NCBI GenBank assembly: GCA_964565195.1
Contig: CAZMCQ010000002.1
Location: 82,161-146,160, forward strand
Reading direction: 5' to 3'
DNA from: an uncultured Candidatus Saccharibacteria bacterium
GTDB lineage: Bacteria > Patescibacteriota > Doudnabacteria > UBA920 > 2-01-FULL-46-14
DNA length: 64,000 bases
Shown here: piece by piece, positions 5,147-61,315 of the stretch
How positions within the stretch are numbered: position 1 is the first letter of the stretch
Layout of the letters: each line of letters opens with the position of its first letter
Position numbers and translations under genes: made by a program
The notes under the pieces: model-generated
The model's input: the letters and a program-made list of their open reading frames with translations, nothing else
Databases searched by the model: none
Told to the model about the DNA's origin: nothing

Positions 5147-6222
5147 AAATTTTGCTTTGCACCGGAATTTATCCGCCGGAACCGGGAGGGCCGGCGACCT
5201 ACACCAAGCTTCTGGCGGAAGAGTTAGTGAAGCGTGGGCATATGATTAAAGTGATTACTTATTCTACCCCCACTCTTTCTCCCCCTTATCAAGGGGGAGA
5301 TGAAGAGGGGGTTGTCCGTATTTCTCGTAGCTGGTTCAAACCACTGCACTATTTCAGATATTTCCGAATGGTGAAGAAATTAGGCAAAAATTTTGATGTG
5401 CTTTATGCCCAGGATCCGGTTTCCGCAGGGTATCCGACTTATCTTGCAGCGCGAGTTTTAAAAAAACCTTACGTTGTCAAAGCCACTGGCGACTACTCCT
5501 GGGAACAGGCCATGGGGCGCAAGTTAACGACCGTCTTAATTGATGAATTCCAAAAGCTGCCGCATTATCCCTTTTGGATCAAATTGATGCGTCGCATTCA
5601 AATTCAGGTTTGCAAGGAAGCCAATCTGGTCATCGTACCGTCAGAATATTTGCGGCGCCTGGTGATGGGCTGGGGTATCAAAGAGAAAAAGCTTCATGTA
5701 ATTTATAATGCTTCGCTAGATGTTCCATCCATTTCCCGCGAACTGCACGGGGGCTTTCGGACTGTTTCCGTAGGACGCGATGTAAAGTGGAAAGGATTTG
5801 AAATGTTGCGCGAGGCGGCAGCGGAATTGCAAAAAGAGATTCCCGATCTCAAGCTCGAAATTTTGCAGAATACCCCGCGCGAAATTGTCCTCGAACGTTT
5901 AGCGGCAGCCGACGTGTTCGTATTAAACAGCGCTTACGAGGGGACTTCTCATGTCATTTTGGAGGCCATGGCGCTGGGGACGCCGGTCGTCACGACGCGC
6001 GTCGGGGGCAATTCGGAAATCGTCACGCCCGGGGTTGGTATTCTTGTGGAATTTAACAACAAAGAAGAGATTAAAGAAGCAATTCGCGAACTTTATCATG
6101 ATCCGTCCTTGCGGCAAAGACTTGCGGCGGCAGCGACCCGAATGGTAAAACAGAAATTTTCGCTGGACGGAATGATCAGCGAGACGCTGGCCGTGCTAAA
6201 ATTCTTGATTCCTAATTCATGA
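5143..6222 (+). CDS. GT4-family glycosyltransferase (carries an in-frame palindromic element insert near the N-terminus)
   Basis: C-terminal EGTSHVILEAMALGTPVVTTRVGGNSEIV GT4 motif. Insert encodes PTLSPPYQGGDEEGV. Confidence 0.8.
   Translation: MKILLCTGIYPPEPGGPATYTKLLAEELVKRGHMIKVITYSTPTLSPPYQGGDEEGVVRISRSWFKPLHYFRYFRMVKKLGKNFDVLYAQDPVSAGYPTYLAARVLKKPYVVKATGDYSWEQAMGRKLTTVLIDEFQKLPHYPFWIKLMRRIQIQVCKEANLVIVPSEYLRRLVMGWGIKEKKLHVIYNASLDVPSISRELHGGFRTVSVGRDVKWKGFEMLREAAAELQKEIPDLKLEILQNTPREIVLERLAAADVFVLNSAYEGTSHVILEAMALGTPVVTTRVGGNSEIVTPGVGILVEFNNKEEIKEAIRELYHDPSLRQRLAAAATRMVKQKFSLDGMISETLAVLKFLIPNS
5267..5312. repeat. GC-rich palindromic element copy 2 (intragenic, in-frame in a GT4 gene)
   Basis: CCCCCACTCTTTCTCCCCC-ttatcaa-GGGGGAGATGAAGAGGGGG. 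Left arm identical to copy 1. Confidence 0.85.
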
Positions 6223-7373: not shown

Positions 7374-8450
7374 ATGAAACTAATTTTTGTCACTCGAAAA
7401 GTTGACCGCGGCGATGCCATAACCGGCTTTGTTTTTGGGTGGATAAATGCTCTGGCGGCAAAGGTGGAAAAACTTTATGTTATCTGCCAGGAAAAAGGAG
7501 ACACATCAGGATTGCCAAGGAATGTTGAGGTTTATTCTTTTGGCAAAGAACTCGGCTACGGCAGGATTAGGCAAGGTTTGAAGCTTTGGAATTTGGTATT
7601 TGGAATTTGCAAAAACTCTGAAGGAGTTTTTGCCCATATGCATCCAATTTATGCGATCATTGCCGGTCTCGCTGCGCGTCTTCGTGGCAAGAGAGTAATT
7701 CTTTGGTACACGCACAAGGCCGTGGATTGGAAATTGAGAATTGCACACGCGCTGGTTAATGAAGTTTTGACAGCGAGTGCGGAAAGTTTTCGGTTGCCAT
7801 CGAAAAAAGTTAAGGTTGTCGGCCACGGCATTGACCTTGAAAAGTTCCACCCCCTCCCATCCCTCCCCCCTCGAGGGGGAGGAAAGGTGGGGGGGAAATT
7901 TAGAATAGCTTCCATTGGCCGCATCAGTCCGGTGAAAGATTATGAGACTCTGATCAAAGCCGCGGATATACTTCAAGAAAGTGGTATCAAGGATTTTGTC
8001 ATTGAGATCTATGGCCGGATCGGTTTGTCGGAGCATCAGGGCTATTACGATTCGCTTGTGGAATTTGTGAACAATGCCAATCTGGACGAGATTGTGAAGT
8101 TTCAGGGCGAACTTGATTATGGCTATGTTGATGAGATTTATAATGAAGCAGATCTTTTTGTAAATTTGAGTCAGACCGGCAGCATTGATAAAGCCGTGCT
8201 CGAAGCCGCAGCTTGTGAGACGCTGGTTTTGACTTCGAACGAAGCCTTTGAGAAGATTCTCAACGAGATTTCACCGCTTTTATTTTTTCGCCGCGATCAC
8301 CCCGAGGATTTAGCTGCGAAGATTGAGGGGATAAAATCATTATCCGGTGAAGTGCGCGTGAAGATTGGCAGGCAGCTTCGCAAAATGGTCGAGCAAAATC
8401 ATAATTTGAACAATTTGGCTGCGAAGATTGTCGAGGAGTTTAAATCATGA
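7374..8450 (+). CDS. GT4-family glycosyltransferase (carries an in-frame palindromic element insert in the interdomain linker)
   Basis: GT-B architecture. Insert HPLPSLPPRGGGKVGGK is at the same linker position as in the gene at 2322. Confidence 0.75.
   Translation: MKLIFVTRKVDRGDAITGFVFGWINALAAKVEKLYVICQEKGDTSGLPRNVEVYSFGKELGYGRIRQGLKLWNLVFGICKNSEGVFAHMHPIYAIIAGLAARLRGKRVILWYTHKAVDWKLRIAHALVNEVLTASAESFRLPSKKVKVVGHGIDLEKFHPLPSLPPRGGGKVGGKFRIASIGRISPVKDYETLIKAADILQESGIKDFVIEIYGRIGLSEHQGYYDSLVEFVNNANLDEIVKFQGELDYGYVDEIYNEADLFVNLSQTGSIDKAVLEAAACETLVLTSNEAFEKILNEISPLLFFRRDHPEDLAAKIEGIKSLSGEVRVKIGRQLRKMVEQNHNLNNLAAKIVEEFKS
7847..7895. repeat. GC-rich palindromic element copy 4 (intragenic, in-frame in a GT4 gene)
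   Basis: CCACCCCCTCCCATCCCTCCCCC-ctcgag-GGGGAGGAAAGGTGGGGGGG. Confidence 0.8.
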
Positions 8451-14425: not shown

Positions 14426-15122
14426 AGTCGTCTTCATTTCCGGCGGCAGCCGCGGCATCGGCGCCGCGACCGTGCTACGTTTCGCGAGGGAGAAGTTTGA
14501 TATTGCCTTTACTTATAATGAAGGACAGGGCGAAGCTTCGGCGGTTGCGGAAAAAGCAAAAAGTTTGGGATCGCCTGAAGTTTTGACCATGCGACTTGAT
14601 ATGGAAAATGACGAAAATATCAGAAACGTTGTAAAAATCGCCCACGAGAAGTTTGGCAAGATCGACATTCTGATAAACAATGCGGGAACTTTTGAACGGG
14701 GAACGCTTTCCGAGCAGACTTTTGCTGTCATCCATCGCCAGATTGCGGCCAATCTCGAAGGTATGATCAAGCTCACCCACGAATTTTTGCCCTACGTCAA
14801 AGAAGCCATCATAAATATTGCAAGTGTGGTTGGGTTTCTCGGCAAACCTCGAATTTCCGTCTACACAGCGACCAAATGGGGCGTGCGCGGTTTTACCAAA
14901 TCCCTCGCCAGAGAGTACCCAGATCTACGCATATACGTCGTTAATCCCGGGCTGACCGATACCCGAATGGGCCGGCCCGAGGGCATGCCGGCGGAAAAAG
15001 TGGCCGAAACAATTTTTGACGCGGCGACTGGGAAACGCCGCCTTGCCAGCGGCAGTGATATTGCGGTAAAATCAAATCTTTACTTCTTAAAGTCGTTGAT
15101 GAAAAAATTATTGGGACGATGA
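14418..15122 (+). CDS. Short-chain dehydrogenase/reductase (SDR) family oxidoreductase
   Basis: VVFISGGSRGIGAAT glycine-rich NAD(P)-binding motif, NNAG, YTATKWGVRG (YxxxK). Confidence 0.8.
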   Translation: MSKVVFISGGSRGIGAATVLRFAREKFDIAFTYNEGQGEASAVAEKAKSLGSPEVLTMRLDMENDENIRNVVKIAHEKFGKIDILINNAGTFERGTLSEQTFAVIHRQIAANLEGMIKLTHEFLPYVKEAIINIASVVGFLGKPRISVYTATKWGVRGFTKSLAREYPDLRIYVVNPGLTDTRMGRPEGMPAEKVAETIFDAATGKRRLASGSDIAVKSNLYFLKSLMKKLLGR

Positions 15123-16291
15123 GGATCATCTATTTAGATAGTGGACGACTACCGACCGAAAAAGCGCACGGCCTGCAGATCATGAAGATGTGCGAAGCGT
15201 TTGCGGCAGGTGGCGCGGAAGTGGAGCTCGTCATTTCTTCCAGAAAAAACCCTGGAGCCGGCGATCCGTTTGAGTATTATCAAGTCAAGCGCAATTTCGA
15301 AATTACCAGGCTTTGGTCGCTGGATCTGGTCAATATTGTTTCAAAATACGGCAGTTGGCTGTCGCGATTAAGTTTTATTTTCACAGCGAAGCGATATTTG
15401 AAATCTCAAAGGTATGATGTTTTGTATCTTCGTGAACATATGAGTGGCCTGTTTTTCCGAAACTTTGTTTTGGAACTCCACATTCTCCCGCAAAAAATCC
15501 GACGTGCGGATTTAAAAATTTGGCAGAAGGCGAGAAAGCTCGTTGTGCTTACCAGCCACACGAAGAAGTTGCTCGTCGAGCACGGAATTCCTGAAGGAAA
15601 AATTCTGGTCGCACCGGATGCGGTTGAAGCCGCAAAATTCGAAATTCGAAATTCGAAATTCGAAACGAGGACAGCATTGGGACTGCCGCAGGATAAAAAG
15701 ATCGTGATGTACACTGGGCATGTCTATGAGTGGAAAGGCGCAGATGTATTGCTGGAAGCCGCTCGATTGTCGTCATTGCGAGCGCCAGCGAAGCAATCCC
15801 AAAGTGGCGAGATTGCTTCGTCGACCGAGGCTCCTCGCAATGACCAAGATATGCTTTTCATCTTCGTCGGCGGCACGGACTGGGATATGCAGAGATTCCG
15901 GCCGCTGGCCGAAGGGCTTGCCAATGTTTTGTTGCTCGGCCAGAAACCCCATGACTTGATTCCAAAATATCTGGGCGCAGCGGATATTTTAGTTTTGCCC
16001 AATTCCGGCAAATCCGATATTTCCAAATACTACACCTCGCCGCTGAAAATGTTTGAATACATGGCTGCTGGCAAACCAATCGTGGCCTCGGATCTGCCGG
16101 CTATCCGGGAGGTTTTAAATGAAAATAATGCTGTCTTGGTCAGGCCGGACGACCCGCAAGCTCTGGCACAAGGCATAAAAAGAATTTTGGAAAATCCGGA
16201 TTTGGGGACGAAACTGGCCAATCAGGCGCGTCTTGACGTGGCCAGCTACAACTGGCCAGCTCGCGCGCAAAAGATTATGATGTCATTATGA
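15119..16291 (+). CDS. GT4-family glycosyltransferase carrying a 7-bp tandem repeat and a 73-bp palindromic insert inside the CDS
   Basis: GT-B C-terminal motif (TSPLKMFEYMAAGKPIVASDLPAIREV). Internal segments FEIRNSKFET (from the AAATTCG x4 repeat) and SSLRAPAKQSQSGEIASSTEAPRNDQDM (from the palindrome). Confidence 0.7.
   Translation: MRIIYLDSGRLPTEKAHGLQIMKMCEAFAAGGAEVELVISSRKNPGAGDPFEYYQVKRNFEITRLWSLDLVNIVSKYGSWLSRLSFIFTAKRYLKSQRYDVLYLREHMSGLFFRNFVLELHILPQKIRRADLKIWQKARKLVVLTSHTKKLLVEHGIPEGKILVAPDAVEAAKFEIRNSKFETRTALGLPQDKKIVMYTGHVYEWKGADVLLEAARLSSLRAPAKQSQSGEIASSTEAPRNDQDMLFIFVGGTDWDMQRFRPLAEGLANVLLLGQKPHDLIPKYLGAADILVLPNSGKSDISKYYTSPLKMFEYMAAGKPIVASDLPAIREVLNENNAVLVRPDDPQALAQGIKRILENPDLGTKLANQARLDVASYNWPARAQKIMMSL
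15635..15667. repeat. Heptanucleotide tandem repeat (AAATTCG)x4 plus a partial unit, inside a GT4 CDS
   Basis: Four perfect 7-bp units at 15635-15662 followed by AAACG. The unit length is not a multiple of 3. Confidence 0.85.
15772..15844. repeat. 73-bp imperfect palindrome of a second type, in-frame inside a GT4 gene
   Basis: GTCATTGCGAG...CGAAGCAATC..(center)..GATTGCTTCG...CTCGCAATGAC. Outer and inner arm pairs are reverse complements. Confidence 0.7.
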
Positions 16292-25190: not shown

Positions 25191-25208
25191 TGGCTTAAAT
25201 AAGCTAAA

Positions 25209-25252
25209 CTCCTTTCAATCTCCCCCTTATTAAGGGGGAGAAAAAGAGGGGG
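25209..25252. repeat. GC-rich palindromic element copy 5 (intergenic)
   Basis: CTCCTTTCAATCTCCCCC-ttattaa-GGGGGAGAAAAAGAGGGGG. Confidence 0.8.
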
Positions 25253-25329
25253 TTCTGATACCCCTTGACACTTTTTGACCCCTTTTGATATGATAGTTTT
25301 AGGTTTACGTATTTTTCATTCCTTTAGCA

Positions 25330-49204: not shown

Positions 49205-49240
49205 TACAATAAACACAAATTCGAAGCACGAAATCCTAAA

Positions 49241-49312
49241 TCCGAAACAAATTTAAATGTTCAAAATTCAAAATTCTAAACGTTTCGAATTTCGAAATTC
49301 GAATTTCGGATT
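49241..49312. repeat. AAATTC/TTCGAAA-type repeats including a perfect 20-nt palindrome TTCGAATTTCGAAATTCGAA, upstream of pilB
   Basis: Seen directly in the 117-bp pilB upstream region. Sequence-related to the heptamer repeat at 15635. Confidence 0.7.
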
Positions 49313-49321
49313 TTAACGCTT

Positions 49322-60676: not shown

Positions 60677-61315
60677 ATGCGTTATTGGGATATCTCAATG
60701 TCGCTTGAGAGCGGCATGGTGACTTGGGCGGGACAAGAAAAGTTTAAGCGCAAAGAAATAGTGGCCGGCGAGGCAATCGTCTCGCTACTTTCTATGACCA
60801 CGCATACCGGCACGCACGTGGACGCGCCGAAGCATTTTCTCGGCAGAAAAGCCGGCAGCGTGGATAAATTGGACTTAAGCAAGTTGATCGGGCCGTGTGA
60901 GGTGATTGAATTACCCCCCCACCTTTCCTCCCCCTCGAGGGGGGAGGGATGGGAGGGGATATTCCGTCGACTGAACAAAGGGGATAGGGTTCTTTTCAAG
61001 ACTTCAAATTCCCGCCGCCGCCTTTTGGAAAAGAAAAACTTCGTGACTGATTATGTTTCGCTAAATCTTGAACAGGCGAAATTATTGGCTGCAAAAAAGA
61101 TCGCGCTTGTTGGCGTGGACTACCTTGGCGTGGAAGCAAAAGGCAGCCAGGGGCGGGGGCACCCGGTGCACAAAACCCTGCTCAAAGCCGGTATCGTCGT
61201 GGTGGAGGGATTAAATCTCTCAAAAATAAAGCCAGGTCATTACAACCTGGCTGTGTTGCCTTTGAAAATTGTGAATGGCGACGGCGCCCCGGCGCGGGCT
61301 ATTCTTTATAAGTAA
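60677..61315 (+). CDS. Putative cyclase family protein (kynurenine formamidase-like) with an in-frame palindromic insert
   Basis: HTGTHVDAPKHF metal-binding motif. TATAAT is only 6 nt upstream of the ATG (possibly leaderless). Insert LPPHLSSPSRGEGWEGI. Confidence 0.7.
   Translation: MRYWDISMSLESGMVTWAGQEKFKRKEIVAGEAIVSLLSMTTHTGTHVDAPKHFLGRKAGSVDKLDLSKLIGPCEVIELPPHLSSPSRGEGWEGIFRRLNKGDRVLFKTSNSRRRLLEKKNFVTDYVSLNLEQAKLLAAKKIALVGVDYLGVEAKGSQGRGHPVHKTLLKAGIVVVEGLNLSKIKPGHYNLAVLPLKIVNGDGAPARAILYK
60914..60958. repeat. GC-rich palindromic element copy 7 (intragenic, in-frame in the cyclase gene)
   Basis: CCCCCCCACCTTTCCTCCCCC-tcgag-GGGGGGAGGGATGGGAGGGG. Near-identical peptide to copy 4 (PPHLSSPSRGEGWEG). 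Confidence 0.8.

Follow-up and report, generated by a model that had tools for sequence, protein, structure and literature searches.

What is a 73-nt inverted repeat doing in the middle of an enzyme gene? The question is raised by a 64,000-nt stretch (hereafter the window) of contig CAZMCQ010000002.1, from an uncultured Candidatus Saccharibacteria bacterium placed by GTDB in the Doudnabacteria (Patescibacteriota). Here a nested palindrome at positions 15772-15844 lies within an open reading frame (ORF) for a family 4 glycosyltransferase (GT4). A preliminary description of the locus had seen in it one long imperfect hairpin, inserted in frame as a 73-bp unit and suggestive of a second class of intragenic palindromic element in this genome. 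Our analysis gives it a different anatomy and a much wider context. The palindrome is a tail-to-tail (convergent) dimer of a small self-folding hairpin module. Moreover, it is very probably an ORF-less dimer of the Ssn-related hairpin motif, a repeat that elsewhere flanks small GIY-YIG nuclease genes, inserted in a permissive surface loop of the GT4 enzyme.

A convergent dimer of hairpin modules

The palindrome itself is real. From 5′ to 3′ it is composed of GTCATTGCGAG-CGCCAG-CGAAGCAATC-CCAAAGTGGCGA-GATTGCTTCG-TCGACCGAGGCTC-CTCGCAATGAC, in which the outer arms (GTCATTGCGAG, 15772-15782, and CTCGCAATGAC, 15834-15844) are complementary at 11/11 positions and the inner arms (CGAAGCAATC, 15789-15798, and GATTGCTTCG, 15811-15820) at 10/10. 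The segment 15765-15851 folds to -37.7 kcal/mol as RNA (z -4.9) and to -23.9 kcal/mol as DNA (z -5.2), and none of 200 dinucleotide-preserving shuffles folded equally well. What does not stand is the notion of a single long hairpin. Instead, two modules that each fold on themselves, one of 27 nt (left) and one of 34 nt (right), are inverted tail to tail around a short spacer (Table 1). The left module has the form C-GTC...GCAAT-C-CCA and the right one the form G-GTC...GCAAT-C-TCG.

No further copy was found in the 64-kb window, even when 2+2 arm mismatches were allowed, and the arm sequences matched only unrelated primers in the literature. A module identical to the left one is present in L014, one of the loci recovered by the searches described below.

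Table 1. Coordinates of the hairpin dimer, its parts, its host gene and the other repeats in the window.
Feature	Position	Strand	Details
GT4-family glycosyltransferase gene	15119..16291	+	390 aa; ORF list, Pfam
Extra segment relative to orthologues	15770..15844	+	~75 nt = 25 codons; alignment of 120 homologues
Left hairpin module	15772..15798	+	matches the family pattern exactly; C stands before it (tag CGTC)
Left module, base helix	15775-15779, 15793-15797	+	ATTGC pairs with GCAAT
Left module, internal loop	15780-81, 15790-92	+	GA facing GAA
Left module, distal stem	15782-83, 15788-89	+	GC pairs with GC; loop GCCA at 15784-87
Left module, 3′ end	15798	+	C, then tail CCA
Spacer between the two modules	15799..15810		12 nt, CCAAAGTGGCGA
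Right hairpin module	15811..15844	-	GTCATTGCGAG-GAGCCTCGGTCGAC-GAAGCAATC; both arms match exactly
C/G-rich palindrome, five copies	2865-2910, 5266-5312, 7850-7895, 25206-25254, 60912-60961		~46 bp; ACCCCC.CTCTTTCTCCCCCT..AGGGGGAGA..AAGAGGGGGT
Heptamer array (AAATTCG)x4.4	15635-15665		in frame in the GT4 gene, encodes FEIRNSKFE
Heptamer array (TTTCGAA)x4.4	49283-49313		reverse complement of the (AAATTCG) array, 34 kb away; in a longer imperfect palindrome, 49217-49306
Heptamer array (TTTGGAA)x3.6	7585-7609		

The module belongs to a dispersed family

We searched the contigs of IMG/VR, and GTDB contigs from one genome per species, for the pattern GTCATTGCGAG-N2-20-CGAAGCAATC. At least 120 viral contigs and at least 120 genome stretches contained it. 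The genome matches listed include Proteobacteria (Bradyrhizobium, Sphingomonas and other Alpha-, Gamma- and Deltaproteobacteria), Bacteroidota (Pedobacter, Mucilaginibacter, Flavobacterium and Bacteroidales), Chloroflexota (Chloroflexus and Anaerolineales) and Cyanobacteria (Microcoleus), together with Melainabacteria, Planctomycetota, Zixibacteria, Latescibacterota, Sporomusa, Helicobacter rodentium and Patescibacteria. With at most one mismatch per arm, 424 modules were collected from 240 loci among the matches listed. Singletons (218) and members of convergent dimers (174) make up most of this set, and a few modules are divergent or in tandem. The spacers of convergent dimers measure 8-37 nt with a mode of 22-24, compared with 12 nt in the window. 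At most ~18% of the copies fall in long open frames, and the family is mostly intergenic. The palindrome is thus an element of a repeat family, as had been proposed, but the evidence does not make it a class belonging to this genome: the window holds a single dimer, and the family is pan-bacterial, shared with phages and mainly found between genes.

The modules follow the consensus Y-GTC / ATTGC / GA / variable stem-loop / GAA / GCAAT / C-Y. Behind an unpaired 5′ tag (Y-GTC) stands a base helix of 5 bp (ATTGC/GCAAT), and next to it an internal loop of conserved purines (GA/GAA). The limits of conservation are sharp, comprising one pyrimidine before GTC (C or T in 94-98% of family copies) and, past GCAAT, an invariant C and then Y-(C/A). 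Dimers have CCAG as their tail (C 79%, A 70%, G 67%). Beyond these limits, the family flanks show no conserved or duplicated bases.

The distal inserts, by contrast with this fixed base, vary from 4 to 24 nt and occur in 207 different, self-complementary versions, and 132 of the 159 long inserts fold better than their own shuffles. CGNAGC, which yields GCGNAGC, and GAGCGAAGCGAC are the commonest inserts, and GCGAAGC is the commonest distal form. As DNA, d(GCGAAGC) is an extraordinarily stable mini-hairpin with a GNA triloop closed by C-G (PMC13037366). Entirely different distal stems are found as well and are likewise paired, for example TCCCGA-TAAA-TCGGGA and GCTGAC-GAA-GTCAGC. On the tagged strand of the modules G.T pairs number 34, versus 17 A.C pairs, an indirect hint that a cognate Ssn nuclease may act strand-specifically. 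The picture is of a protein-recognised foot, made up of tag, base helix, purine loop and 3′ C, that carries a free distal hairpin. The DNA-type loop chemistry speaks for single-stranded DNA rather than RNA.

Among the rarer arrangements, L046 carries four head-to-tail modules with a 33-nt period (2695-2818). In a group of related phage contigs (L003, L006, L029, L036 and L089), single sense-oriented modules lie 5-10 nt upstream of AAGGAGG-N-ATG. They precede structural genes, several per contig and on one strand only (six in L015; an example is L003 7062-7093). This placement suggests that the intergenic regions of phages give the module an additional role or are a preferred landing place for it.

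Association with a stand-alone GIY-YIG gene

Inspection of oppositely oriented module pairs 200-2500 nt apart revealed two loci, L180 (Planctomycetota) and L238, in which a 96-aa ORF is closely enclosed by one forward and one reverse module. Its product is a stand-alone GIY-YIG domain protein, with PF01541 as the only Pfam match (E 6e-18 and 2e-13). The protein family is very large: 7985 of 8000 scored candidates fall at E<=1e-10, lengths are 95-98 aa and sequences are ~70% identical across phyla. For an unbiased test of the association, we took 80 metagenome loci chosen solely by two GIY-YIG peptide patterns and confirmed by tblastn. A module was present within 200 nt of the gene upstream in 71/77 cases, downstream in 68/76 and on both sides in 61, whereas shuffles give a chance expectation of ~2 matches in that amount of flank sequence. 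Median distances are 24 nt between module and start codon and 8 nt between stop codon and the following module. Upstream, the nearest module points the same way as the gene in 47/72 cases; downstream, the nearest one is reversed in 48/68; the remaining genes are flanked by whole dimers. Moreover, the top 9-mers found de novo in the 120-nt flanks are the module arms themselves (GAAGCAATC in 59/80 loci, CGCAATGAC in 49/80). In gene-bearing loci the gene occupies the position that the spacer has in a dimer.

In the reverse direction, the GIY-YIG gene occurs in only 4/240 module-selected loci. This asymmetry (4/240 against ~90%) is expected of a dispersed repeat with a cognate gene of few copies. 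A single-protein search returned no relatives of the gene in viral contigs; an alignment-based metagenome scan found them.

A family of such genes has recently been described. The Neisseria repeat NTS (CGTCATTCCCGCGMAVGCGGGAATCYRG) and its wider class of Ssn-related motifs (SRM) flank small GIY-YIG genes (ssnA, cd10448), and the product SsnA binds the hairpin only as single-stranded DNA and in one orientation, cuts a few nt 5′ of it, and is inactive on double-stranded DNA and on RNA (Chenal et al., Nat Commun 2025, PMC11893778). When the consensus of our GIY-YIG proteins was compared with PLSDB by tblastn, two N. gonorrhoeae chromosomes each yielded a single homologue (49% identity across 92 aa, E 3e-32). 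Both are 2.17-Mb records filed as plasmids in PLSDB (L322, NZ_CP119140.1, and NZ_CP119142.1) and are chromosomes by size. The gonococcal gene is surrounded by 13 NTS copies within 1.7 kb, which is the ssnA arrangement. By sequence, therefore, the GIY-YIG protein is a homologue of the product of the NTS-flanked Neisseria gene ssnA.

Since the module family has the design CGTC-ATT...AAT-C-Y-R-G in common with NTS and shares its association with an ssnA homologue, we assign it to the Ssn-related motifs. Its place as a distinct, bulged variant within the superfamily of CGTC-tagged repetitive extragenic palindromes (REPs) is well supported.

Other contexts of the module and of the gene were also encountered. 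Long alternating module arrays adjoin ssn genes in L244 (1528-2112) and L306 (931-2273) and are reminiscent of clusters of the interspersed mosaic elements of bacteria (BIMEs). In a Planktothrix agardhii plasmid (L323, NZ_LR882964.1) an ssn-type GIY-YIG gene at 698-982 has as its neighbours a restriction-modification gene of type IIL (MmeI-like) on one side and drmA, the DISARM helicase gene, on the other. Around it stands a partly tandem variant module, GTCATTCTGAG...GAAGAATC, in which the base helix is altered on both sides and the GA/GAA loop is kept. Lastly, in contig JBBTVC010000013.1 of a Patescibacteria metagenome-assembled genome (L164, 556-1838) a convergent module pair flanks a 308-aa ORF resembling a Mutator-family transposase (PF00872, E 1e-7); this is a single case.

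The dimer occupies a surface loop of the host enzyme

The position of the element inside a GT4 gene, in frame between conserved blocks, is borne out by the ORF and by Pfam, which recognises Glycos_transf_1 (PF00534, 4e-23), Glyco_trans_1_4 (PF13692, 6e-24) and the N-terminal GT4 domains PF13439 and PF13579. The gene stands within a polysaccharide gene cluster of Patescibacteria type, and the named homologues of its product are GT4 enzymes of Patescibacteria, Parcubacteria or Magasanikbacteria. The palindrome is read as the peptide ...SSLRAPAKQSQSGEIASSTEAPRNDQD..., as had been stated.

Comparison with orthologues shows that this peptide is extra. Nearly all of the 120 best homologues lack the segment and have a linker of ~4 residues between the helix ...LLEAAxxL and the strand xLFVFVGG, where the window protein has ~25 residues more. 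Dropping 15770-15844 yields EAARL-QD-MLFIFVGG, which matches the orthologue pattern ..ARxx-QD-xLFVFVGG. An insertion it is, then, but of a unit of ~75 nt rather than of the 73-nt palindrome, which is not a multiple of three and would by itself shift the frame. The G+C content is 59% in the palindrome and 49% in the GT4 gene. Read in its three frames, the reversed arm meets a TGA in one. An AlphaFold model of the host protein, built on 42 sequences, has a mean predicted local distance difference test score (pLDDT) of 92.1, and values below 50 are confined to residues 222-228 and 231-242, between the helix 208-219 and the strand 245-250. By this model the insert forms a disordered loop at the surface and leaves the GT-B fold otherwise intact.

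A second protein has been struck at the same place. The homologue P0104 shares 47% identity with the window protein. It has one module, placed at this very codon and read in this frame (SLRAP..AKQSQ); the distal stem is another one, paired throughout (CCCCGT/ACGGGG), and a decayed right arm follows. P0104 is not from a sister lineage, and its nearest relatives have no insert at all. Common ancestry of the two copies was therefore rejected, since the nearest relatives of each protein are without an insert, and this argues for independent acquisitions at one GT4 site, permitted by selection or by targeting. On the bolder reading given below, two independent hits at one codon would hint at a preferred target more than at a site that simply tolerates insertion.

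The same loop (equivalent to window 15765-15850) holds unrelated repeat-derived peptides in other GT4 orthologues, such as NFQFPISNFQN and TPTLSPPYQGGDEE. Further lineage-specific inserts in this linker are SISPPTGDLLKGDNYQFP, SEIRNPKSE and a 30-aa insert in P0113. In genomes of the candidate phyla radiation (CPR), the helix-to-strand linker of GT4 appears to be a hot spot that takes up repeats of several families.

Weighing the explanations

We consider it highly probable that the palindrome represents two Ssn-related hairpin motifs joined tail to tail without an ORF, a dimer inserted in a permissive loop at the surface of the GT4 enzyme. Such a dimer would be the non-autonomous counterpart of the module-ssn-module unit. 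It may have entered the GT4 gene by copying or insertion through single-stranded DNA intermediates, with the Ssn nuclease acting in trans from a gene of this genome beyond the window, from a phage or from a past resident. It could then have persisted given an orientation and frame free of stops and a site that tolerates 25 extra hydrophilic residues. For its host the dimer is most likely a neutral passenger, and with a cognate Ssn present it would be a cleavage site on either strand when the locus is single-stranded. That Ssn enzymes would cut this class of hairpin on single-stranded DNA is carried over, by analogy, from relatives in the literature to the bulged variant.

Several points weigh against this reading. 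GIY-YIG enzymes form no covalent intermediates of the kind made by HUH transposases, transposition activity has been shown for no Ssn, and a convergent dimer carries only one cleavable site per strand. No ssn homologue was found in the 64-kb window, which contains a single dimer, and activity in this genome is unproven. The right module has an atypical G before GTC in place of C or T. No target-site duplication is visible, the flanks being TTGTC on the left and CAAGA on the right. No close empty-site genome was found, and the boundaries of the insertion are inferred from orthologues of at most ~60% identity. Moreover, the published SRM search string, HGTCWYN(0-2)YYVSBRHN(0-5)WNVSBRGN(0-2)RNCYNB, matches 0/424 modules and neither module of the window, whereas it does match the Neisseria NTS that served as control. 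Likewise, the CGTC-tagged REP families CGTC-1 to CGTC-4 have uninterrupted stems of 8-9 bp and loops of 4-5 nt, whereas our module is bulged and its distal hairpin variable; a bulged type could, however, have escaped those authors' own search, as they state (PMC3733652).

A bolder extension is that the module and its ~95-aa GIY-YIG gene form an autonomous, horizontally spreading mobile element of single-stranded DNA. This would be a new enzymatic class, a GIY-YIG insertion sequence, whose ORF-less dimers would live as parasites of phage genomes, of coding regions and even of reduced CPR genomes, in the manner of miniature inverted-repeat transposable elements (MITEs). The thought is prompted by proteins ~70% identical across unrelated phyla and by the flanking of ~90% of the genes by modules, and we put it forward as tentative and rather doubtful.

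The relation between repeat and gene could also run the other way. Dimers might serve as docking targets, that is attachment sites for ssn genes or for other elements such as IS110/Piv-type recombinases and phages, and recombination or gene conversion, rather than transposition, might have produced the GT4 copy. The exact placement of the ssn gene in the dimer spacer, the module pair around the Mutator-family transposase ORF of L164 and the known use of the Neisseria repeat dRS3 as a target by a phage recombinase (PMC11893778) would all fit. However, the origin of a dimer inside a gene whose orthologues have none is left unexplained, and most modules are far from any ssn gene (4/240 loci have one). 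We regard this explanation as unlikely.

A role at the level of RNA, in which the transcribed hairpin stabilises, processes or terminates the mRNA or slows translation of GT4, would draw on the strong RNA fold, on the phage-contig modules standing in sense just upstream of a ribosome-binding site and ATG, and on the effects in 3′ untranslated regions documented for REPs in general (PMC3733652). Yet the commonest core, GCGNAGC, is a mini-hairpin of DNA type (PMC13037366), and Neisseria SsnA does not bind the RNA form (PMC11893778). Rfam gave no match to the palindrome, either in a scan of the whole window at gathering thresholds or in a scan of 15600-16000 at E<=10. In dimers one module is antisense whichever strand is transcribed, and the association with a nuclease gene would go unexplained. 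Such a role is quite improbable, though less so for the single modules that stand close upstream of ribosome-binding sites in phage contigs.

Mobilisation of a REP-hairpin dimer by a REP-associated tyrosine transposase (RAYT) or by a Y1 (HUH) transposase of IS200/IS605 type, as in REPINs, is very improbable. The two share an architecture of short hairpins with an unpaired 5′ tag, singletons alongside inverted dimers and a mostly extragenic location, and RAYT systems also act on single-stranded hairpins (PMC3116915, PMC3333891). The tag, however, is Y-GTC and not GTAG, and according to Di Nocera et al. no RAYT is flanked by CGTC repeats (PMC3733652). Clustering of the 1520 ORFs within 400 nt of the 424 modules produced no recurrent transposase family, only structural proteins of related phages and spurious frames through the repeats; the recurrent neighbour is the GIY-YIG protein.

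Finally, that the palindrome is a native, vertically inherited GT4 linker, palindromic by chance, which the preliminary description had named as the case that would overturn it, retains next to no probability: a single copy in the window and a variable linker length among GT4 orthologues would suit it, but nearly all orthologues have a ~4-aa linker instead, the segment folds with z of about -5 and exceeds the gene in G+C by 10 points, and both arms match base for base a motif family dispersed among more than 240 unrelated loci of many phyla and of phages, by which this origin is refuted in practice.

Other identities were considered for the module and set aside. Against a hammerhead-like ribozyme, resemblance to the hammerhead core is limited to the GA-G...C-GAA tandem and a three-way junction is missing. 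The bulge is too short for a k-turn, and the tandem array of L046, with gaps of 8 nt and no spacers, does not fit a CRISPR repeat. The module has no features in common with integron attC sites or IS200/IS605 ends. A MITE with target-site duplication was discarded as no duplication is present in the flanks of the window copy or of the family.

Other repeats in the window

The C/G-rich palindrome of Table 1 is presumably the first palindrome of the preliminary description, which was right in calling the GT4 element unrelated to it in sequence. Three of its five copies lie in frame in other ORFs of glycosyltransferase size, encoding TPTLSPPHEGERKRGS, TPTLSPPYQGGDEEG and HPLPSLPPRGGGKVGG, and in each case a ...KF motif immediately precedes the peptide. 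The peptide TPTLSPPYQGGDEE is found also in the orthologue P0003, in the same loop that holds the Ssn-type dimer in the window GT4. In L003 (5562-5640) and L017 (1914-1990) a module is followed at once by an unrelated palindrome (CCCCTCTCCCTTGAAGGGAGAGGATTAAGGGG) resembling the C-rich family of the window; repeats of Ssn type and of C-rich-like type therefore co-occur elsewhere. The heptamer repeat reported for the GT4 gene is likewise present, and GT4 orthologues have similar low-complexity peptides (FKVQSSKFKV, FQILDFRFK) at the position of this array.

Implications

The Ssn system appears to be broader than published, as it takes in a variant that the published search string misses and extends to many phyla, to phages and to Patescibacteria. 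With the base helix and GA/GAA fixed and the distal stem free, the family offers a ready set of natural hairpin-nuclease pairs for the study of Ssn specificity, and it bears on the possible mobility of the repeat-ssn-repeat unit. In annotation, peptides of the types SLRA..AKQS, EIAS..PRND, HCE..SEAI and VIAS.. are to be read as repeat-derived inserts and not as domain features. For protein evolution, the GT4 gene is a further example, from outside Rickettsia, of an enzyme that has gained a tolerated loop at its surface from palindromic DNA, and one in which the same loop gathers different repeat families in different lineages.

Comparison with known systems

Ogata et al. (2000) and Claverie and Ogata (2003), as cited in PMC3733652, are said to have described Rickettsia palindromic elements (RPEs) that lie in frame in protein-coding genes. 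The window dimer resembles these in being a palindromic repeat, in frame in an enzyme, that adds a hydrophilic surface segment and leaves the fold intact. It differs in its sequence family (except for RPE-4 and RPE-6, which are of CGTC type) and in its host, a free-living or episymbiotic member of the CPR rather than a Rickettsia. It differs also in that a candidate cognate nuclease can be named for the module.

REPINs and their RAYTs (Bertels and Rainey 2011, PMC3116915) offer a parallel in design, with a hairpin monomer, an inverted dimer as the replicating unit, a flanked nuclease gene in single copy and single-stranded DNA as the form concerned. There, however, a GTAG tag goes with a Y1 HUH transposase, in place of the Y-GTC tag and GIY-YIG protein of the module.

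Closer in sequence are the CGTC-tagged REPs, in whose families the CGTC/TGTC tag is unpaired, the stem begins with A-T, a CCA tail follows and most copies form inverted dimers; no RAYT is flanked by them, and occasional intragenic dimers are in frame and encode 20-30 aa (Di Nocera, De Gregorio and Rocco, BMC Genomics 2013, PMC3733652). The same superfamily takes in Neisseria dRS3 and Rickettsia RPE-4 and RPE-6 (PMC3733652). Our family has the C/TGTC tag, the A-T start of the stem, a CCA-like tail, inverted dimers and the absence of a flanking RAYT in common with these REPs. CGTC-3 in particular, as inferred from its peptide VIAGLDPAIH, shares CGTC-ATTGC...GCAAT-CCA with the module. Patescibacteria, by contrast, were not among the phyla reported there (PMC3733652).

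Closest of all in genetic arrangement are the Ssn-related motifs. Both they and the module are hairpin repeats with an orientation, 20-50 nt long and built on the plan CGTC-ATT...AAT-C-Y-R-G, occurring singly and as inverted pairs, and both bracket a single-domain GIY-YIG gene of ~95 aa (as found for the module family, the window itself being without ssn). The Neisseria unit NTS-ssnA-NTS resembles an insertion sequence, according to its authors (PMC11893778). Three differences set the module apart. Its stem is interrupted, comprising the 5-bp base helix, the GA/GAA loop and a distal stem free in sequence and length; it is abundant in Chloroflexota, Deltaproteobacteria, Bacteroidota, CPR and phage contigs, whereas SRM are found mainly in symbiotic Proteobacteria; and the window copy is intragenic.

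Taken together, the element is of a kind already known, that of the CGTC-tagged REPs and Ssn-related motifs, and the in-frame insertion of a dimer has precedent. What goes beyond the literature consulted is the bulged variant, its very wide spread, which includes phage contigs and CPR genomes, and its ~90% association with one Ssn subfamily.

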